From a virus (Duplodnaviria > Heunggongvirae > Uroviricota > Caudoviricetes): a stretch of DNA of 64,000 bases. Position 1 is the stretch's first letter, and each line of letters begins with the position of its first letter. The DNA is taken from IMG/VR virus record IMGVR_UViG_3300024265_000032; one strand, written 5' to 3'. Positions 1 to 41,228 of this stretch are shown in pieces. The position numbers and the translations under genes were made by a program. Under the pieces are notes generated by a model, which had not been told where the DNA came from, did not search any database, and saw only the letters and a program-made list of their open reading frames with translations.

Positions 1-1023
1 CTCCCATCCCTACTCATCGCCATGCACTACTCTGCACGTTACCCGAGTCTATCCTGTACATCAAGGAATCCCCACCAATTCCTGCACAAACGAAGCGGCT
101 AAGCCATCTCGTTTTCCCGTTCACTGGCTTCATGCGCTGTGTGAACGCTCTCCTGTTTTCAACTGGAAGACCAACACGGCTCGAACCTTTCTCACAGTTC
201 TTTATTGGCTCTCCATTAAAAGTACGGGAACCCCCACCTGTTCCTGCAATGACGGTGGTAGCCAATCGGCTACCAGTCGTCTCCTGCGCCACTAGGAGCC
301 ATACCATAAAGACTCCATGACTCTGACACAACCCACAATCTTAAAAGTGCCTACCCCCACCAGTGACACCTGACAATCCCGTGGATTGCCATAATCCCTT
401 CCCCAACTTGTTATCATCGGGGACTCCAGGCGAGTATCAATATCGCAATTGCCTTTTTCGTCTCGCCACGGCAATGACGACTCGCGAACGAGCCTAAGCC
501 TAATTGAATCAGCTAGCTTCCAGACATCAGCTACGATGCCTAATCACTCGACCGCTCTACCACACATATGACTAGCCACCCCCTGACTAGCCTGGGACGA
601 AATAACCCCGGCCTTTCACCGCACAATCGTCCGCCTGGTGCGACCGCCGCCACACCACCTACATGCCGACTGGCCTTCATGTTGGGTTAAGGTAACCGGG
701 TTTTCACCCGACACGCGGGGGGTTTACACCCCCTAATCGCCCAAATCAGACTCTCCGACACACGGGCCAACGCTAATCAATCTACGGATTGATCTCATCT
801 CAGGAACGTATCACCTGAAAACGCTTAGCCCTGATATACCTACGGAACCAACCAACCTTGACACCAACTGAAGCAGATCGCCGACCCCACGACCAAAAAC
901 AAGGGAATTGCTCCGACTCGATGTCCTCTCGCGATGTTGATGGCCATCGCCAATCCCCAGACGCCGAAAACAAACATACACAGAAGCTTCAGACTGAAAA
1001 TCGTGAACATCTTTCTTTTCCTT

Positions 1024-1353
1024 TCAAGACAACGAAGATTGTTTCGGGTCAACCCCGACTTCTTGGTGCTTGTGACGAATGAAGTGAACGACAGGTACCG
1101 CTGTCGCATCGAAGATTTGGACATTTGGCCCGACGAGCAAGCGTAGGTTGTGGAAGAATATCTCTTGTGATTGCTGGTCTACGAAATCCTCTACAAGAAA
1201 TTCAACCTCGGTGCCCTCTGACCAATCCTGATCAGGTCTGTCCAACAACAAAAGCTTGACTTTTCTCATCTCACTCCCTCTGTTTTTTGATACCCGTACA
1301 GACGGGACATCTCTTTGAGGGATTATGACCGTGGTGGGGACACCATCCCGCAA
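1024..1353 (-). CDS. hypothetical protein (109 aa)
   Basis: ORF track; first of a run of same-strand small ORFs; no recognisable motif. Confidence 0.35.
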   Translation of the reverse strand: MRDGVPTTVIIPQRDVPSVRVSKNRGSEMRKVKLLLLDRPDQDWSEGTEVEFLVEDFVDQQSQEIFFHNLRLLVGPNVQIFDATAVPVVHFIRHKHQEVGVDPKQSSLS

Positions 1354-1412
1354 GTATCCACAAAGGGATATTCCATCCTGCCCACTTCAACTGTTTCCAC
1401 ATTTCGGACCCC

Positions 1413-1652
1413 TTAGTCTTCGTGTATGCGAATCCCAAGTAGACGGGCCAATCTGCGCCTGTTGCCTCGGACCCAAATCCCGAGAAACTCCTTACTCGAC
1501 GGAGTCAGACGGAACTTATTGACATGTCCTAACGTGGCCACTCCGTCCTCGTTGACGTACACCCTAACATTGAACGATTCAATCTGTTGCTTTTTCTTTC
1601 TCGGCATTTTTCCAGACCTTTCCACAAATGGTGCAGCCGAGCCACTCTCCAC
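1413..1652 (-). CDS. hypothetical protein (79 aa; start possibly at internal Met ~1607)
   Basis: ORF track; basic N-terminus; overlaps neighbour in a different frame. Confidence 0.3.
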   Translation of the reverse strand: MESGSAAPFVERSGKMPRKKKQQIESFNVRVYVNEDGVATLGHVNKFRLTPSSKEFLGIWVRGNRRRLARLLGIRIHED

Positions 1653-1812
1653 CTCTCGGATCGGCTACCACCTGAGAGTATTTACATCGTGGGCACTTCG
1701 CGCCCTTGACCTTACACCTCGTTACGAACTTCACCCTTTTCGACATTACCCTATCACCCCCGAGTTGATCCCGATGATGATCAAGAATGAGATAAAAGCA
1801 ATGACCAGACAT
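1579..1812 (-). CDS. Zn-ribbon protein (CPRC...CTIC); likely start at internal MSKR ~1746
   Basis: two CxxC pairs in translation. Confidence 0.4.
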   Translation of the reverse strand: MSGHCFYLILDHHRDQLGGDRVMSKRVKFVTRCKVKGAKCPRCKYSQVVADPRGGEWLGCTICGKVWKNAEKEKATD

Positions 1813-1843
1813 GCCGCCATAGTCGTTTGTTTGTCCATGTTTT

Positions 1844-2062
1844 TCACCTACCCCTTAAAGCACCAGCCAACCGCCCTGACCTGTCCTTGATGAACGTGTG
1901 CCCTATCCAGACACCCCCCATTGGTTTTCTGATTGGAACGAACCGTTCCGTCTTTCGCTCCCCACACCCAAAGTCAATCACCCATATACGCCCACACTCG
2001 ATGCAGTACTCAGCCATGAATTCGTCATGGACCGGTCTCCGTTTGTTGCATTTGCACATCAT
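1844..2062 (-). CDS. Cys-rich small protein (72 aa)
   Basis: ORF track; CxC/CxxC motifs. Confidence 0.4.
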   Translation of the reverse strand: MMCKCNKRRPVHDEFMAEYCIECGRIWVIDFGCGERKTERFVPIRKPMGGVWIGHTFIKDRSGRLAGALRGR

Positions 2063-2385
2063 TCGACCCTCGTCAGTTGTTCCACTCTGAGCTTACTTAT
2101 TTCCGTCACGCTCATCTCGGTTTTGACCACAACAAGACGCGCAATTTGTTTCGGAGTAGTGAAATTGTTTCTCGTCCTATACGCTTCGATGATCGCGCCG
2201 CTGAGGAACCATTCACCAGCGAGAGGCGGTCGGAATTCACCAGCCTTCACGCATACGATGCCAATTTCCCCAGGCGTGAATGGACAGGCTATTGCCTTGT
2301 TGATATTGAAGTCACCATTGATACCTAGAGCCTGTATGTCCTCGAAAGTCGGACGGTCATTCAACGGATAGCATCGACCTTTCAT
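2059..2385 (-). CDS. hypothetical protein (108 aa)
   Basis: ORF track; stop/start overlap with downstream gene. Confidence 0.45.
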   Translation of the reverse strand: MKGRCYPLNDRPTFEDIQALGINGDFNINKAIACPFTPGEIGIVCVKAGEFRPPLAGEWFLSGAIIEAYRTRNNFTTPKQIARLVVVKTEMSVTEISKLRVEQLTRVE

Positions 2386-2424
2386 TCTGTGCCTCCTATT
2401 GGTATGTCGTGTCCCTTCGTTCTA

Positions 2425-2697
2425 TTAGTTCGGTTTGAACACCCCTTTACAACAACCACAAGCCAAACAACTTTGTCCGATCACCTTTTCCGACCCGTGA
2501 CGACCGCAATTACCGCACTTTGAACCACAACTCAAGTTCAGACGAATTGTTCCAGCCCCTGCCCTATCGAGTAGTTGTTCCAATTGACTACGGACCAAAG
2601 CTATATCGGACAGCATATACGCTATCTCGATATCGTTTGGGTATTGTTCGAGTAGTTTCCGAGTCCGAACTTCGACCATTTCTAGAGTCGCACTCAT
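2425..2697 (-). CDS. Cys-rich hypothetical protein (90 aa)
   Basis: C-terminal CGSKCGNC...CLACGCC cluster. Confidence 0.45.
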   Translation of the reverse strand: MSATLEMVEVRTRKLLEQYPNDIEIAYMLSDIALVRSQLEQLLDRAGAGTIRLNLSCGSKCGNCGRHGSEKVIGQSCLACGCCKGVFKPN

Positions 2698-2796
2698 CTT
2701 TTACACCCTCCGTTTGCTTTCCACATAAAGAAGGCAGAAAGCAACATACAACAGATAGTCTATTTCTCATACGACATTTCGTATCACCGTTTCTTT

Positions 2797-2946
2797 TCAC
2801 GTCACCGCACAGTATGCCAGAATGATCAGACAGACCACGATTATCGGCCACATGAGAATCCGCAGTGCAATACAACAGGCAACGAATGCCGCAAAACAAC
2901 ATGCCCCTAGAGCCACGGCTACTGTGAAGAATGTTTCTAAGAATTT
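2797..2946 (-). CDS. small hydrophobic membrane peptide (~49 aa, MKFLETFF...)
   Basis: GGAGACG spacer ATG on minus strand; almost entirely hydrophobic; nested in longer track ORF 2797..3207. Confidence 0.4.
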   Translation of the reverse strand, partial: KFLETFFTVAVALGACCFAAFVACCIALRILMWPIIVVCLIILAYCAVT

Positions 2947-3211
2947 CATTTTCGTCTCCATCCTCCGTTCGCTTTCCACATGAAAAACGCCGAAAGTATT
3001 AAACAACATATGGTCCATTCTTCGTATGACACTTTGTCTCCTTACGGCAATATGATATCCAGCGCTGCCATCACCTCTCCGAACCCGCCTGAGAAACCCA
3101 GTGCAACCATTCCGCATCCGGGACACTTGACGATGTTCGGCGGTGTGAAGTTTTCCTCGGTCGAGAACGTTGTCTGACATCCAGGACATGTTTCCATTCG
3201 TGTCCACTCCT

Positions 3212-3433
3212 TTACACTACGTCGTCAAGTTCCATTTCCTCGATCAGCTTAGCGGATTGCATGATCAACACCTTGACTCCGGTAAGTACCCCAGCGATCA
3301 GCATGGCAGCTTCTTTTTTTGCTGCATCTTCGTCGTCGATCACAGGTTTTTCCCCGCTACGATCCAACAACGCCTTGATTACCGGGTTGATGAACTCATT
3401 GTGACCTTCCAACAGTTGCTTTATCGCACTCAT
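3212..3433 (-). CDS. hypothetical protein (73 aa)
   Basis: strong RBS GGAGGT ~5 nt upstream of ATG on minus strand. Confidence 0.55.
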   Translation of the reverse strand: MSAIKQLLEGHNEFINPVIKALLDRSGEKPVIDDEDAAKKEAAMLIAGVLTGVKVLIMQSAKLIEEMELDDVV

Positions 3434-3612
3434 TTCTTACCTCCATCCGGGAGACAACGCTACTGGGTCAATCACTTGACTGATAACATCGCCGCTCAGG
3501 AAATAGATTCGAGATGTCTCATACGATTCACGCACCGCTAACACACGAGTACCGTGTAAATTATGGTACGGTTGGAGTTTTGATGGCTGATTGATCCACA
3601 TACGTTCTACGG

Positions 3613-3870
3613 TCATTTTTCACCTCGAAGCACATTTGCCACATCTTCCTTACACTGAGTATAGCCTTCGTCGTATATGTCTGTCATGTTGCTACACGGT
3701 GGGTCTCTTTTCTCACCCAGCCCCTCGACTACTGCAATCGCGCCATCCTTGATACCCTCGATATGGCCAAGCAGAAGACGAATACACGCCATCAGACGTG
3801 CCTCGTGTGGTGTTGATCCACGTTCATTGCTGAGACGAGACAGTTTCTTTGCCATTGTCCATGTCTTCAT
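3613..3870 (-). CDS. hypothetical protein (85 aa)
   Basis: ORF track. Confidence 0.45.
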   Translation of the reverse strand: MKTWTMAKKLSRLSNERGSTPHEARLMACIRLLLGHIEGIKDGAIAVVEGLGEKRDPPCSNMTDIYDEGYTQCKEDVANVLRGEK

Positions 3871-3906
3871 CGGTCATTATCCGATAGTCGTCTGCATGAG
3901 TCAACA

Positions 3907-4200
3907 TTATGTGAATACCCTCCTCAAGTTGTCGTTCAATTGACGCTTCAGAGACTTGTCAACGCCCTCTCCCGTTGTCGTCTGGCCATTGCCTCTCGCC
4001 ACGATTTTGTAGTTACCGGCAAAGAGATAGGACGGTGATTTGCCCTTTTCTGCAATAACCCAAGCATTTCCTGGATTGTCACAAGACGTACCCTTGTACG
4101 ATTCTGGACATTCCACGACTATGTATCGCCTGCCTTTCCAGTCATCATAATCCCACGTAATCTCGATCGTATCCCCTGGCTTGGCATAGTCATCTGACAT
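3907..4200 (-). CDS. hypothetical protein (97 aa)
   Basis: ORF track; AAGG RBS. Confidence 0.5.
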   Translation of the reverse strand: MSDDYAKPGDTIEITWDYDDWKGRRYIVVECPESYKGTSCDNPGNAWVIAEKGKSPSYLFAGNYKIVARGNGQTTTGEGVDKSLKRQLNDNLRRVFT

Positions 4201-4215
4201 TTCGTGTACCTTCTT

Positions 4216-4446
4216 TCACGCTGGTCCTTGGTATTCCAACATGACCTGAATCAATCGACCGACGAAACCAATGCTGAATGAGTAGTCAGGGTGTGTGTTA
4301 ATGCTCCATGTGCCAACACTTTCAAATCGATGTAGAGTTCCAATGACTTCATCTCGCGAGATGATGTCGTACTCGATCACTTTCCCTTTACCGTTACTGA
4401 CTGCGGCCCTCAGAGACGGTACACCACTGTCCACAAGTATCTTCAT
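4216..4446 (-). CDS. hypothetical protein (76 aa)
   Basis: strong RBS GGAGGGGG upstream. Confidence 0.5.
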   Translation of the reverse strand: MKILVDSGVPSLRAAVSNGKGKVIEYDIISRDEVIGTLHRFESVGTWSINTHPDYSFSIGFVGRLIQVMLEYQGPA

Positions 4447-4643
4447 TTTCCCCCTCCACGTATTTCTGTTCCCAGAGTTTTGAGTCGATAATAGACAGTA
4501 CTCAAGGAGACGTTTGATTGTTCGGCGATTTTCTTGGCAGACATTCCTCCCTCATAACAATTTCTGGTCGCCATGAGAGTACACATTCTATGCCAAGTCA
4601 CTATGCTTTCTCCAAACCGAGCCGATTGATCAACAGCGACCAA
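4443..4643 (-). CDS. small HTH DNA-binding protein (sigma-70 region-4-like helix-turn-helix)
   Basis: segment MSAKKIAEQSNVSLSTVYYRLKTL resembles region-4/LuxR-type HTH. Confidence 0.45.
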   Translation of the reverse strand: MVAVDQSARFGESIVTWHRMCTLMATRNCYEGGMSAKKIAEQSNVSLSTVYYRLKTLGTEIRGGGK

Positions 4644-4817
4644 GTCTCGGAGATATCCAGAAGACTAAACCCGCCACGATCTTTGACTCCAACGATCTGC
4701 CACTCACAAAGAGTTTCGCAAAAACACAGGAACCCCATCAATCTTGAGTCTTTGTATATCGAATAAGTGATGACAAACCCGCGATGGCAAGTACCTGGCT
4801 TGAGAGAAATGTCCATC

Positions 4818-5048
4818 TTACCCTACCTTTCGCGCCATCCCACACTTTCGGACGAATCCAAGTAAACCCCATCTTATCGGGACTCTGGCTTTTGCCGCGT
4901 GCAGACAGATAGACAGAACAGTGAACACATGTATCGCCTGCTCATCCCCGGTAGGATTCGTGGACACTTCTTTTAAGTCATGCCACGCTTTGTTGTATCG
5001 CCTACAGAGATTCAGATATGCACGTTTATCTGACTTCTTGTACCTCAC
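4818..5048 (-). CDS. hypothetical protein (76 aa)
   Basis: ORF track. Confidence 0.3.
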   Translation of the reverse strand: MRYKKSDKRAYLNLCRRYNKAWHDLKEVSTNPTGDEQAIHVFTVLSICLHAAKARVPIRWGLLGFVRKCGMARKVG

Positions 5049-5290
5049 TACAGTTCGCCCACTTGTCTGGCCGTTTCGTCTATGAAATCCTGGCTTAGGC
5101 AGAATTTTCCCAGTGTGGAGAAATGGAGTCTGCCTGATACACTGTATATTTCACAAACGACTGTGACTACATCCCTGGTCGTGTGGACCGTATAATCAGG
5201 TCCAGTTTCGTCGTCACAAACCACCACTACGGGAGTACAATTGCTATTCACAAAGATCATTTCGCCACCTCCGAATTTGCCAGAATCCAC
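5048..5290 (-). CDS. hypothetical protein (80 aa)
   Basis: ORF track. Confidence 0.4.
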   Translation of the reverse strand: MDSGKFGGGEMIFVNSNCTPVVVVCDDETGPDYTVHTTRDVVTVVCEIYSVSGRLHFSTLGKFCLSQDFIDETARQVGEL

Positions 5291-5371
5291 ATGATTTCGT
5301 TCGCAGATAACCCCTCGTTTTCCAAATCGCCCCGAGTCAATCCCGTTAGGTCGATCTCCACCGCACTTGAA

Positions 5372-5842
5372 TTAGTCAACCAAGCTATCGTCCATGTCTT
5401 GTCCACATTCGGGACAGATTGGCCAACCAGATTCCCTTAAACAACTAAGGATTGTTGTTATGTTCATTTTGAGATGAGCCACCTTTTCGCATTTGGAACA
5501 TGTGAGTTCTACGTCAAACACATGTTTATGGGCGTAGTTCTTCAAGTGCTCGATCTGGCCGTCGATTCCTTTCGGAATAGGTAATACCGTGTTCCATCTT
5601 TGGTATTCGCGCCAACAATCGGGACAACAGAGGTGTGTCGTCTCTCCATCTGGAACTTCTGGGTTGTCGTGTGGTCTCCTATATCCGTTTCCAGTCCTTG
5701 CCTTTTCTATCGCCAACCCTTTTGTTGGCGCTCCAGGCATATTGTGATCAGGACGGTGGTTGCCAGACACACAAGTTGTTAATTTTCCGTTAACCCCACG
5801 AACTCCGTCACAGGTGGCTTTGTATACGACTTCTGTTGTCAT
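5372..5842 (-). CDS. multi-Zn-finger protein (~156 aa; start MTTEVVYK after GGAGGG)
   Basis: CCPDCW...CSKCEK...CPECG motifs; RBS GGAGGG before second Met. Confidence 0.5.
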   Translation of the reverse strand: MTTEVVYKATCDGVRGVNGKLTTCVSGNHRPDHNMPGAPTKGLAIEKARTGNGYRRPHDNPEVPDGETTHLCCPDCWREYQRWNTVLPIPKGIDGQIEHLKNYAHKHVFDVELTCSKCEKVAHLKMNITTILSCLRESGWPICPECGQDMDDSLVD

Positions 5843-6014
5843 TTTCGTACCCTCCAAAAACGACCGAATAAGGTAGATTTCCTACTACCGTTGGCTCTGC
5901 GCCAGTGGGTGGGTAATTCCCACTATTAACCCGTTGGACGCCTTACGGCTTACCCATCGACCCATCAGAGAGATGGTTATTCGGTTCCAAGCAAATATGA
6001 TAATAGCCAGATTT

Positions 6015-6194
6015 TCACGGAAATCGCCTAACGTCGCTTGCTATTGTTTTCACGTCTACCAGTTCAACTTTTAGGCTCGTTGTTTTCTCCGCTGTGACTC
6101 TCAACACATGATCAACATGAAAGTCAGCAATCCGTATATCTTTTTCCTCCATTATACAAATGTCTTTCCCGTCGATGATTATGTAATATGTCAT
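6015..6194 (-). CDS. hypothetical small protein (~59 aa, MTYYIIIDGK...)
   Basis: GGAGGT RBS 9 nt upstream on minus strand. Confidence 0.4.
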   Translation of the reverse strand: MTYYIIIDGKDICIMEEKDIRIADFHVDHVLRVTAEKTTSLKVELVDVKTIASDVRRFP

Positions 6195-6829
6195 GGTGTT
6201 TAACACCTCCAAAAGCACATGACGATAGCCATCGACGAATACGACGATAGCATAAGATCGTATGACGATCACGATCAAATCTCGTACTCCCAACGCCATT
6301 TTCCCCACTCTTCCCCACACGGTGACATTGTCCTCCACACGGGTGAAAAATCACATATAGGGACCAAACGAGGCTCATATGAGGCGCGACTGTGCAGTAG
6401 GAAAAGGTGGGTTTTTGGCCCGATAAAGTCACTTTTTGTCTCGATCTACCCTATACCACCTTTACAAGGAACACAAGGAATGCAGAGCGCTCGGAAATGG
6501 GACGGACTGGGATTTGGCGCCTGGCACACAGGCACACCAAGACTGTCGATGAAAAACCCGGAAACTCTTTCTCAGAACCCCGGATAGTTTCCTCGGCGCG
6601 CTATGTTTCTATGTTGGACCTATAACGTACTGATGGTAAACCCTACGATGGTTCCCAACAAGAACATAAGCCACATGCCCACTTTCATTGACATTTCATT
6701 TCCCCTACATTGTGACGGCGATTGACACCACCACTACAACCACCGCGCCAGCCACGATCCAATCCAGGACCGTAACCATGCAGTGCATCAAACTCGTGAC
6801 ACGTTCTAGCATTTCATTTCCCCTTAAAC

Positions 6830-6902
6830 ACGGTCGGACAGGACTCGAACCTGCAACCTTCCCCCGACTGGGGATGCGCTGCCAATTGCGCCACCGACCT
6901 AG
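6830..6902 (-). tRNA. degenerate tRNA-like (Asp-like, GTC in a shortened anticodon loop); probable pseudo-tRNA
   Basis: reverse complement reads GGTCGGTGGCGCAATTGGCAGCGC...GGTTGCAGGTTCGAGTCCTGTCCGACC: canonical D-arm and T-arm (GGTTCGAGTCC) but the anticodon arm has only a 5-nt loop; T-arm region resembles the tRNA-Asp at 63262. Confidence 0.45.
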
Positions 6903-7891
6903 AAAAGACACGCGCCAACCCACCTTCACGCGCACTCAGACTATTGCGAGTTATTAGCCCGCAGTAGCTGACTCCCGACCCGTAGGTCCGTTCCTCTACT
7001 TTCTTTTGGATAACATCCAGGCAGATATAATCTGGCAATCTGTTTCTTCCCTGGATGGTTTCATGTATCCTTATTTTAACGACTATCCGAATCGAGACTG
7101 CCGCGCCAGTGCGGTTATCCAGTTTATTCGATCCGCCGTCGTGTCGTGTCGTTCGGGTGTATCCCAACTTTCCAATGACTCACAACTGCCCGCTGTGCGC
7201 CATCGAATGTGGCCTCAAGACAAGAATTGAACCGTGCCTCATATCCGACCCGCCGACCATCGGAAGTTTCAGCGAACTTCGTCCGACCATTGTGAGAGAA
7301 ATCAAAGAGGATTAGTTTACAAGACTTGCGCGAATGAGCCCCTATCCCACGACAAAAAAAGAGCCTATCACCTGACTGACGAGCGGTTTCCCGAGACGAT
7401 TCGAGAGATAGTAATACACGACAAAGACCCTTTGCTGTCTTGCTCCCACGGTGGCTGACACCCGGACCTTGCCAGACAGATAAGGAATCGTGTAGACGAA
7501 CCGTCACTTATATCCGCCCACGTCATTGACGTAGACTGAGTCTGCAATTCAGACTCTGCGTTTTGCCGCTTCTTGGACTGGCTTTTGACCGATAGCCTTG
7601 ACGATCCCGGTTCAGACCATTGACGCGCTTCCTGCGCCGTCGCCGACCGTACTGCGGAGACTACAGACCTACTCCCCAACCCATTCCGGGGATACCCGAC
7701 GCTTATCGGACTTCCCGCTGAAATTGGTTATGGGAACCGCTGACACTGATTCTAAGTGTGCCTATAACGACAGGGTGCTACCCTGACAAGCGGCTCTATC
7801 CTGACTTATGTCAGAATGTCCATCGTAAAGCGCCCCGACGATTCGAGGCGCTTCGAGTCAGACACTCTACTCGGACTGTGGACCGACGAGA

Positions 7892-8224
7892 CTAGACCTT
7901 GCCCAAATCCTTGAACGCCTTGCGCGTCGCGCCGGTTGTCGACCTGAGTCCCATAAGGGTCTCTGCGATCGTGGCCGCGTTATCGGACCCGAAACCCAGT
8001 TCACGGTCGGGGGTGTACTGACCACCCTCTACGACCTGACTTTCGAGCGATTCCCACGCTGCGGTCAGACCTGCGATGGCGTCATCGACGTTATCGTACC
8101 CCGAGCACGCATCGACAATTCGCTTGTGCTGACGATACGTGACGGCGTTTGCCAAAAACGCATCCTGACCGAACTTCTCGGACGTTCCTTGGGCATCATT
8201 CTTGACAGCGGTGTCAATGCTCAT
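7892..8224 (-). CDS. hypothetical protein (~111 aa, start MSIDT after GGGAGA)
   Basis: RBS GGGAGAAACGT-ATG; last minus-strand gene before the repeat region. Confidence 0.5.
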   Translation of the reverse strand: MSIDTAVKNDAQGTSEKFGQDAFLANAVTYRQHKRIVDACSGYDNVDDAIAGLTAAWESLESQVVEGGQYTPDRELGFGSDNAATIAETLMGLRSTTGATRKAFKDLGKV

Positions 8225-9039
8225 ACGTTTCTCCCGTATTGACTTGCCGCCCCAAGAGCCGAGACTACACCGTCCTGACTTATGGGACGGGCCTAGTAGA
8301 CTCGTTATCGGAACATCACTTATTCGGACCAACCTTGCGTCGGCCACTTATTATCGGTCCCTCGCGGGACTTCGGCTTGCGTCCGAGAATAACGAACCGG
8401 ACCTAGCGTCCGTTTTCGTTCTCTCGTTTTTCATCCTACATAATACTCTATGTAAAGTTATACAAAACGTCAAGCGCGGATTGAAAATAAATTTTCGGCC
8501 CTGAGAGCCGTCAATCGTCGATATTATCGCACTTTGTCCGATAATGCATGATTTGATTTACGTCCGCTTTTTGAGATCATTTATCGGTCAATTGCCTATA
8601 ATATCCCGTTTATCGCGCCCTAGAAGCTGATTCTTATCGGAAAGTCCTATAAGATGTGTTACGCGAGTCCTATAATGCGCGAATTATCGGCAAAAAGCGT
8701 CCTATAACCGTTAAAATCGCGATATTTTCGGTCGATTCCGATAAAAAAGCACGCCCTATAACGAAATCACGGTTAATTGGGTCAAAAACCATGATATTAT
8801 CACACGTACATAACGATTCCCGGAACGGTCCGATAATCCCGCCCCGCGCTACGTCCGATAACCCTCTGGGGGGAGGAAGGTCCGATAAGCAAGACGAGGA
8901 AGAGTCCGATAACCATTTGTCCACGAACGTCCGATAACACAGGGACCGATAACGAAAAACCCGCTTGGCCCGATAACGGGCATGGCGGTCCGATAACTGC
9001 TTTGTGGCTGGTCCGATAACCCATTCTGCGCCATACGAT

Positions 9040-9200
9040 ATTCTCGGCCCTATCCGATAAGTATTCGTGTCCACGCATACAAACCAAACTGTTATGTGCC
9101 ACGTCCGATAATCGCCCACGGCCCAACGTCCGATAATTTTCTGGTCTGCGCAAAGAAAAAGGTCCGATAATTCGGACCCCTGATCTTTTTAGTTATCACC
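9040..9200 (+). repeat. higher-order repeat copy 1 (~120-150 bp conserved core ending in near-palindrome GGTCCGATAATTCGGACC followed by T-run)
   Basis: ...aagtattcgtgtccacgcatacaaaccaaac...acgtccgataat...cggtccgataatt...gcgcaaagaaaaaggtccgataattcggacccctgatcttttt. Confidence 0.7.
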
Positions 9201-10229
9201 CCTTAAAGGATTGGTCCCATAATGTGCCGATTCGCATACTCCCGATAACCGCCACAAAGAGCGATAATCTTCCGAGTTGGAAGGACCGATAACACCCATT
9301 CCAGCGTCCCGACCGCACAGTCCGATAACTCCAAATGGTCCTGGGTATGGTCCGGTAACCTGTCTCGCAGAATTCCGTCAATTACCGGACGTTCCCACAA
9401 CGTCCCGAAGGCTGGTCCTATAATCAGGAAATCATCGGCTGTGGTCCTATATCTACACATGGTCTACTCCTTGTTATCGGCCCAAGAGGGGCGAGGTTCC
9501 GATAACCCCACCCGCTCTCCGTCCGATATTACATGCCAGCGGTTCCGATAAGCTCGCCCGGTGTCTTGATTATAGGACGACCCGAACTGATTTGGTCCCA
9601 TAATCTCAGGTCCACTTTGCCGACATTATCGGCGTCGTCAACGTCCGAAAACAACAGACAGCCGAAGTACCGATAATCGTTCGCCAGCCGTCTTTTCAGT
9701 GCTGCTTTAGCCCGATATTTCTTTGTTGCGAAGCTGCACATCCCATAAAGTGCGCTATGGAAAGGTCCGAGAACTTGGCACAACCACCCATTCTGTACTC
9801 GGACGTAGTTGTATCGGACTGTCTTTTTTCGGGCGCTCTTGAACTGGAGCACTGTGTCCGATAATACGACTCGACCTGTCTGTCCCATAACTGCCATGAT
9901 TGACTCCCGTCCTATAATTATTCCGACAATCGCCTCGCGATTATCAGACGTTCCCGCTTGCTGAACTTCCGATAACGTAATCGGGCCACCAAGCTGTTGT
10001 TAGTCCCATAACGTGCGCTCGCCCACAGGCCGAGTCCGATAAATCCATAAACTGCTACTTCAAAAGAATGCGCCATCAACCAGAGTCCGATAAAGATGAT
10101 GATCGGAAATGCGACACATCCCATTATCCATCCGATAATAATTGTCTCGCCTCCGGGCGCTTGACTATCGGATTTAACGTCCGATATTTTGCCGCTTGCC
10201 ACTAGGTCCGAATAGTCGATGAGTCCCAT

Positions 10230-10565
10230 AATTTATTCCCTTTCGTGCTTACACTGAAGTATAGGATACCTGCGCCGGAATGTCGAGCCGATAACCTATA
10301 AATCCAAAAAACTTTCTTCGTCCTATAATGTGCCCTTTTCTGTCCTGCTGCCCCATGCGTGCATTATATGCCACGCCCAATAATCCTCACGCCCCATAAC
10401 TTCGCCGCGCTACAAAACCGCGATTCTGAGCCCCAATCCGAATACTTATCGGCCACACATACGCACGCCAAACGATTACCGGCCACGTCCTATAATAACT
10501 CACGGCCCTACGGTCCGATAATGTTCTAATCGGCGCAAAAGAAAAGGGTCCGATAATTCGGACCC
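10230..10565 (+). repeat. higher-order repeat copy 2 (same core, ~1.39 kb downstream of copy 1)
   Basis: ccgaatacttatcggccacacatacgcacgccaaacgattaccggccacgtcctataat...ggcgcaaaagaaaagggtccgataattcggaccc; also shares the upstream segment cctttc..tgc(t)tcac..ac..tat.. with copy 3. Confidence 0.7.
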
Positions 10566-11669
10566 AGTGTTATTCTAGTTATCGGTCCATCGGCGAGATG
10601 GGCTCATGGTCCGAAAACAATTCGAGATGCCGAACCGCGATCGGTCCGATAATTTCTTCCCATCGTCGCTTCATGTCAGTTATCGGTCGTACCGGCTCAC
10701 CGTTGAGCGCATCCAACATTCCGATAATCTCCCGTTTTTCGGTGTTATCCAACGTCTGATAACATTCAATGGAAACCTTGTTTTGGTCCCAAAACCAATG
10801 TAGTTTCTGGACCATATGGAAACGTCCGATACCTTCCGGCTTCCTGCTGAGCCGATAATTGCCACTTGTTATCGGAGTACGAGAGTACGTCCGAATAATC
10901 GAAATCCCATGTGGAGAATAGTGAAAAACCAACATATTATCGCTCCTTGATTGCCAGTTGTGCCGTCCGATAATTCGTATGTAAACGTCCGATAGTGATT
11001 CGGTTACGCACCGTATCATGTCCGATAAGCCGTATCGAACCGGATGTAAGTGTTACTGTAACGAAGCCATCTTGTTCCGATAACGTCCTGGCGAACAGCG
11101 TCCCATAACTCATCGCCATCTGGTCCGATAAGTTAGTCTCGTGCGCCTCTGGGCAATTATCGGTCGCCGGAATCGTGATCGTTGCACGTCCCATAATATC
11201 CTCCTTTAGAACCATAGTCCGAGAACTGTGATGATAATCGTGTGTCCGATAACCATCATCCAGAATTGTTTTTCGCGTCCCATAATACTACTCCGTAAAG
11301 CACTGGAAAGAACAGTCCGGTAATCCTCGATACTGCGAATTCCGGAAATTGTTGGACCCATAACATCCGCATTGCCACCATCCTGCGATGGCTGAATTTC
11401 GGACCAAACCCTGTCCGCAATTAGGACACTTGCCCGTAGAAACGACCGATATTGCCTCGGCTTTGCATTCGGCAAGGCGTTTTTTATCACACGTAAGGCA
11501 CGTCCCAGAATAACGGCTTCTCACGCGCCCACAACGACATTTTAATCTGAGTCCCATAATTATCCCTTTCTGTGCCACTGTCCGGTAACATCGTACAGAT
11601 CGGCTGCGGTCATCGGAAGTTTAGGTCCGAAAAAAAACTCTTTGATTGTCGTCAGCAAACGTCTCATAA

Positions 11670-11905
11670 TTATCCCCTTTTTGCTTCACTACATTATACG
11701 ATTCAAAAACCAGGAAATCAAGCCCGATAACCAACTATTACAAAATTCTTTTTTCGTCCTATAACTATGGCCATGGCTAGCCGTCAGCCCCGAAACGTCG
11801 TTATTACAGGGACCGTCTTATAAGTATTCACGTACACGACCACAGACCAAACGATTACCCGGACCGTCCGATAATGCCCTCACGGCGGTCCGATAACTAC
11901 TACTC
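11670..11905 (+). repeat. higher-order repeat copy 3 (partial)
   Basis: cgtcttataagtattcacgtacacgaccacagaccaaacgattacccggaccgtccgataatgccctcacggcggtccgataac; ~1.36 kb after copy 2. Confidence 0.65.
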
Positions 11906-13032
11906 TACTGCTGAACGTCTGATAACTAGATGAGAGAGAGAAGGTCTGATAACTAGAACTGTCGCTGCGAGGTGTTGGTCTGATAACTACTGCTGCTTGG
12001 TAGTCCGATAACCTCACGATACTGGCAAACGCAAAGGGCCGATAACTCGACCCCATTCGGCGCGTCGTCTTTGTTATAGGACGCAATGGAAAGCGTCCGA
12101 TACTGCTATGCCGTACTGGCACGTCTCATAACTTGGCCAGTTTATCGGAAGTCTAGGAGCATGGTCGTAATTATCGGTCGTTTCTACGATGTCGGCGTCG
12201 ATGTCCGATAACCATTTCAGAAAGTCTGATAACCAAATGGTTGGAATTACTGCATACTCGGACCACCACTTATCGGAACCGCAAACCTCTTCGGCGATCT
12301 TGGTCCGATATTTCACAAATGTCATTTGCATGTTATTGGCCCATCCCATAACAGTTGTTGTTATCGGAGCACACGAAGTGGCCACTGTTCGGTCCGATAA
12401 CTCCGATGCCTTCGGCGGTCCGATAAAGTTTTAGGTCACATCCGGATGTTAGTCCGATAAGAGCCAGGATCACGAGTCGTCCGATAATCTTCATTTCGAT
12501 TCTTCGCTCGTTGCGAGGTTATGTCCGATAACTCTAGCCACCGATGGCTGCTTGAATTTCGGACGTTACATGAGAGAAGAGTCCCATAACTTTAGAAACA
12601 ACGACCCAACCGATAGTGGCCGTCACTGCGAGTCCGATAAGTTTGGTGGTCATGGCTTTGCCTTTCGTTCGTTTGGTGTCTCTATCCTATCTACATGATA
12701 GCATTAGTTATACCGAATAGCAAGAGAAAAGGAAAAGAATCTTTTGGTCCGATAACTCGCCTTGCTCGTCGAGCAAGCAAGGTCTGATAACAAGCTGATA
12801 GCATAGTCTGATAACAAAAGGAAGGTACTAGTCCGATAACGGAACTCGGTTGGGGGTCGCCCGGAAATATGGATAGGTCCGATAACTCGGGTGGGTCCGA
12901 TAACCCATGGGGGTTTAGGCACAACAGGGTCAAAAAAGCCAGAGCCTACAACTTTTCGTGTACATGATATCTAACCCAGAGCCCATTCGCTTTACCCCAT
13001 ACACTTTTTTCCCAAAAAAAATCGAAGACACT

Positions 13033-13064
13033 TGGCACAAGCGATGCAGTTGCACGTATAATGG
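13033..13064 (+). promoter_or_regulatory. sigma70-like promoter (TTGGCA N19 TATAAT) for small ORF at 13083
   Basis: cttggcacaagcgatgcagttgcacgtataatgg; first plus-strand promoter after the repeat array. Confidence 0.45.
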
Positions 13065-13082
13065 AATAGAAGGAGAAATGAT

Positions 13083-13232
13083 ATGTTGACGAAGAAACAA
13101 CGAGACGAGATTCGCAAAGGACTTGTTCATTGTGATTTAAGTCCCTTGGATGAGAGCGAACGTAACCTAGAAACTTGCCTCAACGATCTAGACGAGAAAG
13201 ACATCATCATCAAGCAATTCGAAAATGAGTGA
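13083..13232 (+). CDS. small acidic protein (49 aa, MLTKKQRDEIRKGL...)
   Basis: AAGGAG RBS 8 nt upstream; preceded by TATAAT. Confidence 0.4.
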   Translation: MLTKKQRDEIRKGLVHCDLSPLDESERNLETCLNDLDEKDIIIKQFENE

Positions 13233-13325
13233 GGTAGACTCCCGCTCTTCCCCCCTCTCTTTCCTCCACCCCCCCGTATTATCGGCTAGAAAAAAATCGA
13301 AACGAAGTGGGACAAGGGTGTGTGT

Positions 13326-13350
13326 TTCACGTATAATAAGGTATCAGGAG
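13326..13350 (+). promoter_or_regulatory. promoter-like CACGTATAAT followed by 5-prime hairpin ATCAGG-AGTA-CCTGAT
   Basis: tcacgtataataaggtatcaggagtacctgatcc. Confidence 0.4.
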
Positions 13351-13393
13351 TACCTGATCCCAGAGCTTCGCACGGTTTTTGAAAGAAACAGAT

Positions 13394-13504
13394 ATGAGTT
13401 TTTTTACTGCCTTACTATGCGGTGTGATTTGTACAGCGATAATAGCCTTTGTGGCGATCAAGTTCGTTGTCCCTTTCATGGATCATATTAGTAATCGACT
13501 AGTA
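13394..13504 (+). CDS. small hydrophobic peptide (~36 aa, MSFFTALLCGVICTAIIAFVAIKFVVPF...)
   Basis: single TM-like peptide; weak RBS. Confidence 0.3.
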
Positions 13505-34521: not shown

Positions 34522-34710
34522 GTGATGAAAATGAGTGATGAGAAAAACAAGATTGATTGTCGACTGAAGGCCACTGGAACAAGTAAGGCTGACGCGAAGG
34601 TCGTCAAAGACTTGTCTGTCCCTGATCCAGAACCAGCAGTTGGGAAAAAAATTCTTGACGAACTGACTGAAGAGGAATCAAAGGATGACGCAAGATCAAA
34701 GAATTCTTAA
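34522..34710 (+). CDS. hypothetical acidic protein (62 aa)
   Basis: ORF track. Confidence 0.45.
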   Translation: MMKMSDEKNKIDCRLKATGTSKADAKVVKDLSVPDPEPAVGKKILDELTEEESKDDARSKNS

Positions 34711-35272
34711 TGAAGCATATCCCATAATTGAGAAGATAGCAAAATCTCGTAGTAGCAATGGTGCATTCGCGTATTATTGTAACGACGACATAAGACAAGA
34801 AGTATGGTGCATGTGCTTGGAAGCGATGGATCGATACGATCCAAAGGTTGGTCCTATAGAAAACTACTTGGCAAGACATGTGGCTAACCGTATCAAAAAT
34901 CTGAAAAGAGACAAATATTTCCGTCCTGGATCAGATGTACCAAGTTCTGGGTTCGCACGAATCAGAATGAATCTTATTAATGCACTTCCTCTTGGCGGTG
35001 GAGATATTGCTGACCAAGGAACCCTCTTGTGTGGCACGCCCATCAGTTGTGATCCAATAAACTACATATTGTGTGAAGATGATCCAATAAACTACATCTT
35101 GTGTGAAGAAACTTTTGTATATATCAAGGAAAGACTGCCAGAGGATTTACTTTTGCCGTTCGAAGCATTGGTGGGCAACAATAAGGTTCGCAGTCAAGTT
35201 ACCGATCTTGTCAGAAAACATGTTATTGACATTCTAAGAGAAAGGGAAGAAGATGGCGGAAACGAAGAATAA
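34685..35272 (+). CDS. sigma-70-family (ECF-like region 2) factor candidate; contains 30-bp tandem duplication
   Basis: DIRQEVWCMCLEAMDRYDP..GPIENYLARHVANRIKNLKRDKY; tandem DPINYILCED/DPINYILCEE at ~35045-35105. Confidence 0.5.
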   Translation: MTQDQRILNEAYPIIEKIAKSRSSNGAFAYYCNDDIRQEVWCMCLEAMDRYDPKVGPIENYLARHVANRIKNLKRDKYFRPGSDVPSSGFARIRMNLINALPLGGGDIADQGTLLCGTPISCDPINYILCEDDPINYILCEETFVYIKERLPEDLLLPFEALVGNNKVRSQVTDLVRKHVIDILREREEDGGNEE

Positions 35273-38576: not shown

Positions 38577-39109
38577 TTTTACCCACATACACCGTCATCA
38601 GAGATACTCGTGAGCAGAAGGATCACGGATGGACGTTTCCTGCGCATCATCCGAATAGAAGACCGCCAAAGTGTGACGGGACAATTAGCGAAAAGTTGGA
38701 TACCGGAGACTATAGTATGGTAGGATATACCGACATATTCTCCATTGAGAGAAAGGCTGATTTTGCAGAACTTTGGCAGAATTACAGCAGCCAGAAGAGG
38801 CCAGCTTTTGAGGCAGAAATGAAACGCATGTCTCATATTAAACACAGATTCATTATTGTTGAATCGCTGTACACTCCAGATATCATGGAGTTATCTCCAC
38901 CGCAGTTTACGAAGGGTGTTCCTGGGAAATCTTTCGTCAGATGGTTGATGTACATATCTGTTAAGTATAATGTCAACATTATCCCAGCGGGGGCTTGTGG
39001 GAGAAAGATCGCACAAATGCTTTGTGAAGAAGTTGTGCGTGTGACTAAGGATCGTTGGGTTCTACAGGAACCAAAAAGCAAGGATCAGGAGGATTGTCTT
39101 GGTAACTAG
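38564..39109 (+). CDS. ERCC4 (XPF/Mus81/Hef)-type nuclease candidate
   Basis: IRDTREQ ... LDTGDY ... SIERKADFAEL = D-x-RE / GDY / ERKxxxD nuclease motifs. Confidence 0.5.
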   Translation: MSRLILPTYTVIRDTREQKDHGWTFPAHHPNRRPPKCDGTISEKLDTGDYSMVGYTDIFSIERKADFAELWQNYSSQKRPAFEAEMKRMSHIKHRFIIVESLYTPDIMELSPPQFTKGVPGKSFVRWLMYISVKYNVNIIPAGACGRKIAQMLCEEVVRVTKDRWVLQEPKSKDQEDCLGN

Positions 39110-41228
39110 TGCAAAATCGAATTCAGTCGTTAAAACAAAGGTGACCTTGGATGATTTGCTTCATGGTGATCAAGGCAAATTTGGACACATGTTCCCTTTT
39201 CGCGATCGTGTACCAGATATTGCTGATCATATCTTTACAGACCTGAAGAAGTCAAAGATACCATTGGATGAATTTGTAATCGACAAGATGTTGAATATTG
39301 ACTATATTGGTTGGACAGCAAAGGTGATGTTGAATCTCGATTTATTCCCTATTCAAATTGCAACTCTTCAGATCATGTGGAATACTCCATTCCCTATGTT
39401 GATAGCTTGTCGAGGTGGCAGTAAGACATTCATGCTTGCTGTGTATGCGCTTTTGCGAGCCGTATTTGATCCAGGTACTAAGATAGTGATTGTTGGTGCT
39501 GGTCTTAGACAGGCTCGATTGGTATTCAACGAAATAGAAGGTATTTGGAATCGATCTCCGATGCTAAGAGCAATTGTTGGTGGTGGCAAAAAGGCTGGAC
39601 CACGACAGAATGTAGACCTTTGTTATTTTCGCATTGGAGAATCTATCATCTACGCCTTGCCTATGGGTGATGGCACAAAGATTAGAGGTTTCCGTGCGAA
39701 TGTTGTTATTGCTGATGAGTTTGCTTCTATACCCGAAGATGTATTTGATATTGTTGTCCGTGGTTTTGCAGCTACCGCTAAGACCCCAGTAGAAGAAGCG
39801 AGGAAGAGGGCTTTTGACGCGAAGCTCGCCCAGCTTGATATACCATCAGACATAAGGAAGAAGCTAGTCACAGATGACGGAAAGATGCATGGTAATCAAA
39901 TTGTTTATTCAGGTACTGCATATTATGCTTTCAATCACTTCTGCAAGAAGTATGAAATGTGGCAAGAGATCATAAAGAGCCAGGGTGATCCAGAGTTAGT
40001 ATCACAGATTTTTGGTGGTGAGAATATGGTACCTGATGGTTTCAGTTATAAAGACTATGCTATCATTAGAATTCCCCACACTCATCTGCCAATAGGATTG
40101 TTGGATGATAGACAGTTAGCTCACGCCAAAGCTACGCTTCCAAGGAACATTTACTTGATGGAGTACGGTGCTGTTTTCGTGAAGGATTCCGATGGATTCT
40201 ATCCAAGAAGTCTGGTGGAGGGATGTACTGTCGGACCGAACAAACCAATTGCGACTCCAGATGGTGATGTAACATTTACACCATACATGAGAGCAGAATC
40301 AAAGCGTACATACGTAGTTGGTATTGATCCTGCTGCCGAACGAGATAACTTGGCTATAGTCGTGATAGAAGTACGTGCTAATCATTACCGAGTGATACAT
40401 TGTTGGGTTGTCAACAAAAAAGAATTCACGAACAGGAAGAAGCGCGGACTTATTACGGACGATGACTATTATGCATATTGTTGTTCTCGGATACGAGAAA
40501 TTGTGAGATTATTTAATCCTATTCGCATAGAGATGGATAGTCAGGGTGGTGGATATGCTGTTGCAGAGATGTTGCGGAACAAGAAATTGTTGGACATTAA
40601 AGATGGAGATTTCCCAATCTATGAAGTCATAGATTTTGACGAGCCTAAGTCTACGGATGGAGAAACTGACGGGCGGCATATTTTGCATCTGGTACAACAG
40701 AGTACGGAATTCAACCAGAATGCCAACATAGCGCTTCACAAAAGTCTTGAAACTCGCTCCCTTTTGTTTCCAGCTTTTGACAGCGTAAAAATGTATGCAG
40801 CAATTGAAGCGGAAAAATCGATGGGTGTTGTGTTTGACACATACGAGGATTGTGTGTTTAATATAGAGGAACTGAAAAACGAACTTTGCACCATCCAAAT
40901 GACCGAAACTGCTACTGGCAAGGAAAGATTTGATACACCACAAGTAATTCAGCACGGTGTTGTCGAAGGTCGTTTACGAAAGGGTAGATTGAAAAAAGAC
41001 AGGTACACTGCACTTCTTCTGGCTCACAAATACATTTATGACGAAAGTATCTCCGAAGGTGAAGAGATAGATTACAACGATGTGGCTGGAAACATCGAAA
41101 AACGTTCCAAGACGCCAGATAAAGACGAGCCTATGTACCGGGGTCCAGGTCTTGGTCGAATGCATAATGCACAAGGGGCTCGTGGCGGGGGTCTTTTCAA
41201 AGCCGTGAAGCGTGGTAAGCGTCTCTAG
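39099..41228 (+). CDS. terL: terminase large subunit
   Basis: Walker A-like ACRGGSKTFM, Walker B VVIADEFASI, C-terminal RNaseH-like nuclease VVGIDPAAERDNLAIVVIE; followed by portal. Confidence 0.85.
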   Translation: MVTSAKSNSVVKTKVTLDDLLHGDQGKFGHMFPFRDRVPDIADHIFTDLKKSKIPLDEFVIDKMLNIDYIGWTAKVMLNLDLFPIQIATLQIMWNTPFPMLIACRGGSKTFMLAVYALLRAVFDPGTKIVIVGAGLRQARLVFNEIEGIWNRSPMLRAIVGGGKKAGPRQNVDLCYFRIGESIIYALPMGDGTKIRGFRANVVIADEFASIPEDVFDIVVRGFAATAKTPVEEARKRAFDAKLAQLDIPSDIRKKLVTDDGKMHGNQIVYSGTAYYAFNHFCKKYEMWQEIIKSQGDPELVSQIFGGENMVPDGFSYKDYAIIRIPHTHLPIGLLDDRQLAHAKATLPRNIYLMEYGAVFVKDSDGFYPRSLVEGCTVGPNKPIATPDGDVTFTPYMRAESKRTYVVGIDPAAERDNLAIVVIEVRANHYRVIHCWVVNKKEFTNRKKRGLITDDDYYAYCCSRIREIVRLFNPIRIEMDSQGGGYAVAEMLRNKKLLDIKDGDFPIYEVIDFDEPKSTDGETDGRHILHLVQQSTEFNQNANIALHKSLETRSLLFPAFDSVKMYAAIEAEKSMGVVFDTYEDCVFNIEELKNELCTIQMTETATGKERFDTPQVIQHGVVEGRLRKGRLKKDRYTALLLAHKYIYDESISEGEEIDYNDVAGNIEKRSKTPDKDEPMYRGPGLGRMHNAQGARGGGLFKAVKRGKRL

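Follow-up and report, generated by a model that had tools for sequence, protein, structure and literature searches.

What does a phage gain, and by what route, from three similar blocks of DNA spaced about 1.4 kb apart among its small genes? The question is raised by positions 9,040 to 11,905 of a 64-kb stretch of DNA (IMG/VR record IMGVR_UViG_3300024265_000032; hereafter the window), a portion of a large uncultivated phage genome, where an original prediction had described three diverged copies of a ~1.4-kb higher-order repeat, each ending in a near-palindrome and together grown by tandem duplication. We propose that the three copies are probably regulatory cassettes separating unrelated, short, leftward early operons, so that the ~1.4-kb spacing would be the length of an operon. 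Read along the minus strand, a cassette would comprise a Rho-independent terminator, a ~70-nt box, an A/T-rich tract, a sigma70 promoter, a 5′ untranslated region (5′ UTR), a Shine–Dalgarno (SD) sequence and an AUUAUGGGAC start codon. The cassettes would be old paralogues whose similarity is upheld by function, and would also supply the homology for gain and loss of gene modules, as do the PeSL cassettes of T4-type phages.

The repeats themselves are real. When 7500–13500 was compared with itself, 1384–1386, 2763, 1379 and 1436 bp were among the top seven offsets; the only other one was 275 bp, contributed by an unrelated promoter repeat at 13015. Self-blastn matched 9040–9197 to 10423–10583 (75% over 163 bp, E = 2e-24), 10223–10354 to 11661–11791 (69% over 134 bp, E = 6e-12), 9036–9136 to 11799–11896 (68% over 102 bp, E = 1e-7) and 9128–9180 to 12003–12054 (74% over 54 bp), and also detected a partial, degenerate fourth copy (8803–8913 matching 11841–11953). 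These similarities are not produced by the short motif with which the region is studded, because identity on non-motif columns only was still 0.70, 0.60 and 0.64, whereas segment pairs drawn at random within the array gave 0.46 ± 0.06. The core quoted in the original prediction (CAAACGATTACC..GTCC.ATAAT..CACGGC..GTCCGATAA) and the tail GCGCAAA(G)AAAAGG-GGTCCGATAATTCGGACC were both found in copies 1 and 2.

What recurs, however, is not a 1.4-kb unit but two kinds of intergenic block: a ~160-bp block of box plus hairpin, present as copies 1 to 3 (Table 1), and a ~130-bp promoter/5′ UTR block, present twice. The segment at ~10230–10565, taken earlier for a single recurring unit, is a composite: on the left it matches only copy 3, on the right both copy 1 and copy 3, and the corresponding position of copy 1 lacks a promoter part. 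Nor does every copy end in the palindrome, since the hairpin of copy 3 has diverged (GGGCCGATAACTCGACCCC, 12035–12054) and lies ~110 bp farther to the right, past a ~140-bp insertion consisting solely of additional motif copies. Terminator-to-terminator distances are 1386 and 1489 bp. A tandem duplication should leave similarity along the whole unit at a constant offset, whereas the matching blocks measured just 100–160 bp, and the interiors (9203–10229, 10579–11667 and 12074–12653) showed no mutual similarity by self-blastn or tblastx at E ≤ 10.

Comparison with relatives clarified how this region changes. Syntenic contigs L239–L243 were reached through homologues of A2, the region's sole well-conserved gene, and five IMG/VR contigs (L030, L051, L057, L058 and L075) were also syntenic. 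A2 has 28 homologues (59% identity in L058, 43% in L030) and belongs to no Pfam family; its product has a weak dsRBD/HicB-like fold and is not an obvious DNA binder. Gene content varies among the relatives: compared with three units in the window, there are two in L240/L241 and in L242, and L240/L241 have a single promoter module in place of the window's two. The L242 contig joins A1, at its start, straight to the B2 region, and the equivalent of window 10243–11187, containing P_A, box 2, terminator 2, B4 and B3, is missing. The crossover lies within ~20 nt common to both window sites, consisting of GTCCCATAA(T) and the SD, that is, start-codon/SD sequence; because the L242 junction falls at this shared sequence, we read 10243–11187 as an indel. 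Copy 3 and its orthologous box in L240 share 85% identity, compared with ~70–75% between paralogues of the window, which places the duplication of the cassette before the divergence of these phages.

These comparisons bear on a true tandem duplication, in which a 1.4-kb unit was duplicated twice and its interiors later diverged or were replaced while the regulatory ends were kept. Three homologous cassettes at the spacings given above are what such an event would leave, and paralogues older than the L240 split make an ancient event conceivable. The interiors, however, retain no residual similarity, hold 3, 5 and 3 genes and encode unrelated small proteins, one of which (B3) has a homologue in L030. 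The relatives show presence or absence of whole modules, with start-codon/SD junctions, and not graded divergence. Growth of the array by duplication of a ~1.4-kb unit is therefore improbable.

Separately, six of the contigs from related phages (L240, L241, L242, L051, L057 and L075) begin or end within the array. This implies that the repeats break short-read assemblies, so that the clade would be under-represented among complete genomes.

Table 1. Coordinates of the cassettes, the operons between them and other features of the window (promoters and terminators are predictions).
Feature	Coordinates	Strand	Basis or remark
Cassette copy 1: box (9071–9137, two motif sites 25 bp apart) and hairpin	9036..9200	-	Self-blastn, alignment
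Predicted intrinsic terminator 1: AGGGGUCCGA-AUUA-UCGGACCUUU, then UUCUUUGCGC (UUCUUU)	9158..9181	-	Fold, consensus scan; closes operon A1-A2-A3 (A3 stop codon at 9203)
Unit A: A1 9918–10229, A2 9529–9897 (122 aa), A3 9203–9460	9203..10229	-	Open reading frames (ORFs); A1 start at 10229 has SD + ATGGGAC
Predicted promoter module P_A: A/T-rich tract, motif abutting -35, TCGACA (10286–10281) -17- TATACT (10263–10258), 5′ UTR, SD, ATG	10223..10354	-	
Cassette copy 2: box (10455–10522) and hairpin	10423..10583	-	Alignment, self-blastn
Predicted intrinsic terminator 2: GGGUCCGA-AUUA-UCGGACCC + UUUUCUUUU	10546..10565	-	14 nt past B4 stop (10579)
Unit B: B0 11560–11667, B1 11288–11557, B2 11206–11283, B3 10937–11194, B4 10579–10935	10579..11667	-	Genes dissimilar to those of units A and C
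Predicted promoter module P_B: TTGATT (11721–11716) -17- TATAAT (11698–11693), SD, ATG at 11667	11661..11791	-	
Cassette copy 3: box only (11834–11897)	11799..11897	-	Alignment, self-blastn
Insertion separating box 3 from its terminator: extra motif copies GTCTGATAA/GTCCGATAA at 11917, 11944, 11978, 12003	11898..12034	+	
Predicted intrinsic terminator 3: GGGUCGA-GUUA-UCGGCCC (one G.U pair), then UUUGCGUUUG; stem 12053–12036	12035..12054	-	20 nt past C3 stop codon (12074)
Unit C: C1 12534–12653, C2 12333–12494, C3 12074–12331	12074..12653	-	
Predicted promoter P_C: TTGCTA -17- TATCAT with TG	12695..12723	-	Conserved in L240, L242, L058
Degenerate fourth box without hairpin	8803..8913	-	Self-blastn; orthologous to first box of L058
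Motif array enclosing the cassettes	7703..12903	+	
T4-type large terminase	39099..41228		
tmRNA, tag GESQFRMAA	60432..60782		137 bits
tRNA cluster: tRNA-Phe, tRNA-Ala, tRNA-Asp	63090..63335		tRNA-Ala by ARAGORN only

The palindrome had been suggested to be either an RNA hairpin/terminator or an operator bound by a dimer. The first suggestion is supported, on the minus strand, opposite to the one on which it was first read. There the palindrome would form a stem of 7–10 bp with a loop of 3–4 nt, followed by a U-tract (TTTTCTTTT); the three tracts read UUUUUCUUU, UUUUCUUUU and, more weakly, UUUGCGUUUG. The hairpins stand 14–22 nt past the minus-strand stop codons at 9203, 10579 and 12074, each belonging to the last ORF of its unit, and a consensus scan returned minus-strand sites of stem plus T-run at 10565–10546, 9181–9158 and 12054–12035. 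Predicted minus-strand RNA folds for hairpins 1 to 3 had free energies of −20.3, −15.2 and −20.6 kcal/mol (z = −3.4, −2.6 and −1.5), and terminator 3 gave no fold on the plus strand (z = −0.1). We then compared ten hairpins, those of the window and those at equivalent positions in L030, L239, L240, L242 and L243: all ten form on the minus strand, where nine have a greater stability than on the plus strand. At stem pair 4, five hairpins have U-A, two C-G, two A-U and one G-C, and stem pair 3 is G.U in seven of the ten, an arrangement that keeps the RNA helix and breaks the DNA palindrome. Because such G.U and compensatory changes maintain the RNA stem at the expense of DNA symmetry, a terminator is favoured over a DNA operator. 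With a GC-rich stem, a 3′ U-rich tract and a coding-strand position past the end of a gene all present, the sequence evidence supports the hairpins as intrinsic (Rho-independent) terminators on the minus strand.

For GGTCCGATAATTCGGACC as the DNA operator of a dimeric regulator speak the perfect 7-4-7 inverted repeat of copies 1 and 2 and the array motif within the palindrome, which is probably a protein-binding site. An operator would conserve two-fold symmetric half-sites in DNA, and these were not found: seven of the ten homologous hairpins are no longer DNA palindromes, as a T in the 5′ arm stands opposite a G, a combination that pairs in RNA and is a mismatched half-site in DNA. The other variable stem position covaries through four base-pair types, the element always follows a stop codon at the distance given above and precedes a coding-strand T-run, and only one arm matches the array motif. 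We regard an operator as very improbable. The resemblance of the hairpin to a near-palindrome of GTCCGATAA arises from its 3′ arm, which is one of the ~90 copies of this 9-mer in the region. The predicted terminators share with known Rho-independent terminators the GC-rich stem, the U-rich tail, the proximity to a stop codon and the upkeep by compensatory and wobble pairs; they differ in that the 3′ arm is constrained to the array motif (UUAUCGGNCC) and the U-tracts are interrupted (UUUUCUUUU).

The two promoter blocks (10223–10354 and 11661–11791) contain, on the minus strand, an A/T-rich tract, a candidate promoter, a short leader, an SD and an AUUAUGGGAC start. Pairs of TTGACA-like and TATAAT-like elements with 17-nt spacers occupy the same cassette position on the minus strand in the window and in six relatives with near-consensus promoters (L030, L058, L075, L239, L242 and L243). 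TTATCGG(G/A)C or a close variant lies immediately 5′ of the -35 in at least 6 of 15 promoters; one copy of the motif would abut the -35 of a cassette's near-consensus sigma70 promoter. Between terminator and promoter, the ~70-nt box (CCAAACGATTACC..GTCCKATAAT..CACGGC..GTCCGATAA), with two motif sites 22–27 bp apart, is kept in all cassettes and in the relatives.

The same box invites another interpretation, that box and hairpin encode a short plus-strand RNA resembling lambda OOP and complementary to the operon upstream at its 3′ end, starting past GTCC(G/T/C)ATAAT acting as a -10 and ending at the hairpin. The box motif does end in ATAAT in six of seven copies, with a conserved CACGG 5–8 nt later, and hairpins 1 and 2 fold on the plus strand too, copy 1 with a T-run nearby. 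However, no -35-like element stands at the right distance (the sequence there is CCAAAC), C.A mismatches weaken the plus-strand hairpins in most relatives, the hairpin of copy 3 is unfolded on that strand and 140 bp off, and Rfam returned no match. We consider such an RNA unlikely.

Several points weigh against cassettes of terminator and promoter. The promoter and terminator calls are consensus matches, and the sigma70 consensus used may not be that of the host; from these matches we infer that the signals act in vivo. Copy 1 has no promoter module beside it, the next minus-strand promoter lying 560 bp to the left (8473–8445). Terminator 3 has a weak U-tract (UUUGCGUUUG) and a fold z-score of just −1.5. 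Hairpin 2 is slightly more stable on the plus strand and hairpin 1 also has a plus-strand T-run, and the two may function bidirectionally. Finally, the conserved ~70-nt box is left unexplained by a model of terminator and promoter.

Repeated cassettes of this layout have a precedent. The PeSLs of T4-type phages combine a stem-loop terminator, an A/T-rich tract, a sigma70 promoter, an SD and a start codon (PMC2839356, PMC4122927); they flank orphan early genes and mediate module indels (Arbiol et al. 2010, PMC2839356; Comeau et al. 2014, PMC4122927). The window shares with them the composite, repeated intergenic layout, the small orphan early genes in a plastic region and the indel junction inside a cassette. 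It differs in that the phage is not T4-like and the cassettes have no sequence homology to PeSLs, are ~275–390 bp long compared with ~100 bp, and contain the additional 70-nt box and many GTCCGATAA sites. By analogy, the cassettes appear to work like PeSLs without being members by descent, and repeated cassettes of terminator plus promoter between operons are an ordinary phage regulatory architecture, of the PeSL type, in a new lineage.

Less ordinary is the array of short sites in which the cassettes are embedded. Between 7500 and 13100 the plus strand carries 90 sites that match GTCCGATAA with at most one mismatch, including 36 exact copies, compared with 8 in the other 58 kb. They span 7948–12903, and nearly all fall in 8536–12903, a 5-kb array with about one site per 55 bp; a sub-array of ten sites in the opposite orientation occupies 7703–8634, where transcription is still leftward. 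The conserved sequence at the sites is the 9-mer and the following pyrimidine, nothing more. Besides the 3′ arm of the hairpin, motif copies include the site abutting each -35 and, as an overlapping variant, many start codons. Nearly half of the sites (43 of 90) lie within ORFs, in all three frames (L-S-D 16, x-I-G-x 18, x-Y-R-T 9). In alignments with L240 and L242, motif positions were 92.5% conserved compared with 74% elsewhere, and 54 of 61 sites were retained; the motif sites are under purifying selection. A one-orientation array is likewise present in each of the nine distinct syntenic relatives (L241 duplicates L240), with 11–50 sites in the parts covered. Pooled nearest-neighbour distances peak at 18, 24–27, 33–36 and 44–48 bp, with almost none below 15 bp, a spacing that suggests that the motif is bound by a protein with a defined footprint. 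Among the genes crossed by the array, C2 encodes 53 aa with a lipoprotein-like signal peptide (MKIIGRLVILALIGLTSGC...), and its four motif copies encode IIG, LIG, YRT and VIG.

Arrays of many asymmetric sites of 9–13 bp, mostly in one orientation, are also found in cluster A mycobacteriophages as stoperators, the sites of L5 gp71. Stoperators number ~30 genome-wide, are intergenic and are oriented with transcription, whereas the sites described here are packed at one per 55 bp into a 5-kb block, are often intragenic, and flip orientation at ~8640 while transcription continues leftward. Other identities for the motif were considered and set aside. It has TTATC alone in common with a DnaA box; a Chi- or KOPS-like polarity signal found no host evidence; a late-sigma or gp55-type promoter is contradicted by the absence of plus-strand genes and by the occurrence of both motif orientations in other phages; a protein repeat by the occupation of all three frames; and an RNA-level element by sites upstream of the outermost promoter and by the change of orientation within co-directional transcription.

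A literature text search for the 9-mer returned mostly primers, the single relevant match being a survey of dif/Xer in Proteobacteria. In that survey, dif sites of delta-proteobacteria have ACGTCCGATAA, AGGTCCGATAA, ACGTCCCATAA and TTGTCCTATAA as their XerC-side arms (Carnoy & Roten 2009, PMC2731167). In the table of predicted dif sites of Kono et al. 2011 (PMC3025954), GTCCGATAA occurs 16 times, GTCTGATAA 19, GTCCCATAA 8, TTCCGATAA 8 and GTCCTATAA 6, and the sites with these arms come from Acidobacteria, Actinobacteria, Firmicutes, Bacteroidetes, Chlamydiae and delta-proteobacteria. These five variants are exactly the five commonest in the window, where they number 36, 7, 11, 6 and 8 copies, respectively. 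When viral contigs were scanned for GTCCGATAA-N6-TTATGT, 120 sites emerged, and their unspecified positions rebuild the dif consensus ACGTCCGATAAT-ATATA-TTATGTTAAAT, which argues that the 9-mer is a genuine XerC-type arm. In a first set of array-bearing viral loci, TTATG came after the motif at a spacer of exactly 6 nt ten times, compared with 0–4 times at other spacers and ~0.9 expected.

The exact 9-mer is also arrayed in unrelated IMG/VR contigs with GC contents from 33% to 59%, often in both orientations within ~500 bp. Six smaller, unrelated phage contigs (L117 at 3850–4280, L043 at 5045–5470, L116, L036, L104 and L077) have 15–20 copies that form two opposed blocks in a span of ~450 bp. 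Those of L117 and L043 flank a dif-like core, GTCC(G/T)ATAA-N6-TTATGT, whose XerD-side arm is non-canonical; the core may serve as an attP or in multimer resolution, with half-sites as accessory arms. An all-versus-all blastp across the array-bearing viral loci identified no common neighbouring gene, the flanking genes being varied (AAA/BCS1, radical SAM, HD, DUF7178). A scan of a genome collection for paired motifs gave mostly chance matches and coding tandem repeats, among them a repeat of 9 bp (Ser-Asp-Lys) from a Verrucomicrobiota metagenome-assembled genome, and no clue to the host.

Array sites and dif arms are alike in being asymmetric sites of ~10–11 bp followed by a pyrimidine. A dif site, however, also has a 6–8 bp central region and an inverted XerD arm, and neither a XerD-arm-like sequence (TTATGTNAANT) nor a conserved core was found in the window array or its relatives; the window array is therefore not a recombination site. 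It consists instead of 90 half-sites in one orientation over 5 kb, without the 6-bp central region, and its outer arm positions differ. A G precedes GTCC on its 5′ side in 37% of array sites compared with 2.5% of dif sites. An inverted pair of C-type arms at the orientation switch (8667–8692) was examined as a Xer core and rejected as a single pair, unconserved in relatives. A scan for the tyrosine-recombinase signature found none in the window, and matches only in L081 and L107. The pdif modules of Acinetobacter (PMC6449649, PMC13141974) likewise place many Xer-type sites per replicon around small, shuffling accessory modules, but pdif sites are complete 28-bp XerC/XerD sites in alternating orientation, whereas here the sites are same-orientation XerC-like half-sites and the mapped junction lies at start-codon/SD homology. 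Phage T5 carries, within its terminal repeat, 1.2 kb of non-coding sequence with 8 DnaA boxes, proposed as an injection stop signal (bioRxiv 10.1101/866236). As there, conserved sites for what would be a universal host DNA-binding protein cluster in the (pre-)early region of a large lytic phage; here ~90 sites run through coding sequence, and function is hypothetical for both.

These properties admit a further explanation, that the cassettes are nucleation centres of a protein–DNA lattice built on the GTCCGATAA array by host XerC or by a phage protein of the same specificity. Control of termination and of promoters would then follow from binding, as roadblock or insulation, so that this explanation overlaps the one we prefer. 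Each cassette has three sites at fixed spacings of 25–26 and 34–35 bp, which are the two main pooled spacing peaks; one site abuts each -35, one serves as the 3′ arm of each terminator, and a variant lies over start codons. The conservation and retention of sites, their presence in all three reading frames, and the identity of the motif with the XerC arm of dif, point the same way. We hold this explanation as a tentative one, less probable than cassettes of terminator and promoter. If it holds, a clade of large lytic phages might possess an early-region lattice of 35–90 one-orientation XerC half-sites with no XerD partner, which would recruit or titrate a host recombinase. It is possible, at a similarly low level of confidence, that the recombinase, or a phage protein copying its specificity, would insulate or silence the early operons or organise the DNA; and it is no less speculative that the cassettes would be the nucleation points. 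Elsewhere among phages, the half-site would be deployed in smaller arrays of two orientations about a single dif-like core. Binding of XerC to the array, and with it titration, insulation, shut-off of early operons or DNA organisation, is our second inference from the sequence.

Returning to the cassettes of terminator and promoter, we placed them in the context of the whole window. The large terminase shares only ~25% identity with its closest matches, terminases of Bacillus and Microcystis siphoviruses, and isolated phages gave no match to the DNA of 8500–13000, nor to the protein of the 122-aa gene or that of ORF 45895–46920. Other functions encoded in the window include sugar-nucleotide enzymes, a DNA methylase, an HNH endonuclease and an RNA ligase. 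Pfam searches with ten ORFs of the array and cassette region returned nothing, and Rfam on 6000–13200 (E ≤ 1) returned only tRNA and a chance CsrC match on hairpin 1. Genes lie on the minus strand to the left of ~13000 and on the plus strand to the right, and 1–13000 is presumably a leftward, minus-strand early region made of short operons of small genes. GC skew also changes sign at ~13 kb, which is uninformative as evidence for an origin, as it coincides with the change in gene orientation.

Several other features of the window merit description. The most conserved non-coding piece of the locus, 12852–13063 (86% identity to L242, 78–81% to L058 and L051), lies where leftward and rightward transcription diverge and GC skew switches sign; it is a possible origin, packaging site or shared control region. 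A 60-bp module, AAAAAAATCGAA...CACGTATAAT, occurs twice, 275 bp apart (13015–13075 and 13290–13350), ahead of the first two plus-strand genes, and the two copies are probably repeated rightward early promoters. On the other side of the array, ~900 bp without a convincing ORF (6950–7890), between a minus-strand tRNA-Asp (6830–6900) and the gene at 7898–8225, keep 65–73% DNA identity in L058, L243 and L239, with tblastx matches dispersed across all frames and no Rfam match; this segment may be a large structured RNA or 3′ UTR. Directly upstream of the structural/terminase block, the plus-strand ORF 34685–35272 has a borderline match to Sigma70_r2 (23.9 bits, cut-off 24) and may encode a phage late sigma factor.

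Taken together, these findings suggest that PeSL-like shuffling of early modules through cassettes of terminator and promoter occurs outside the T4 group, in a clade of uncultivated phages. More unusual is the setting of the cassettes, as nodes of a conserved lattice made up of ~90 half-sites resembling the XerC arm. If a host Xer protein does bind these arrays, they would represent a new route by which phages use or neutralise a universal chromosome-maintenance protein.

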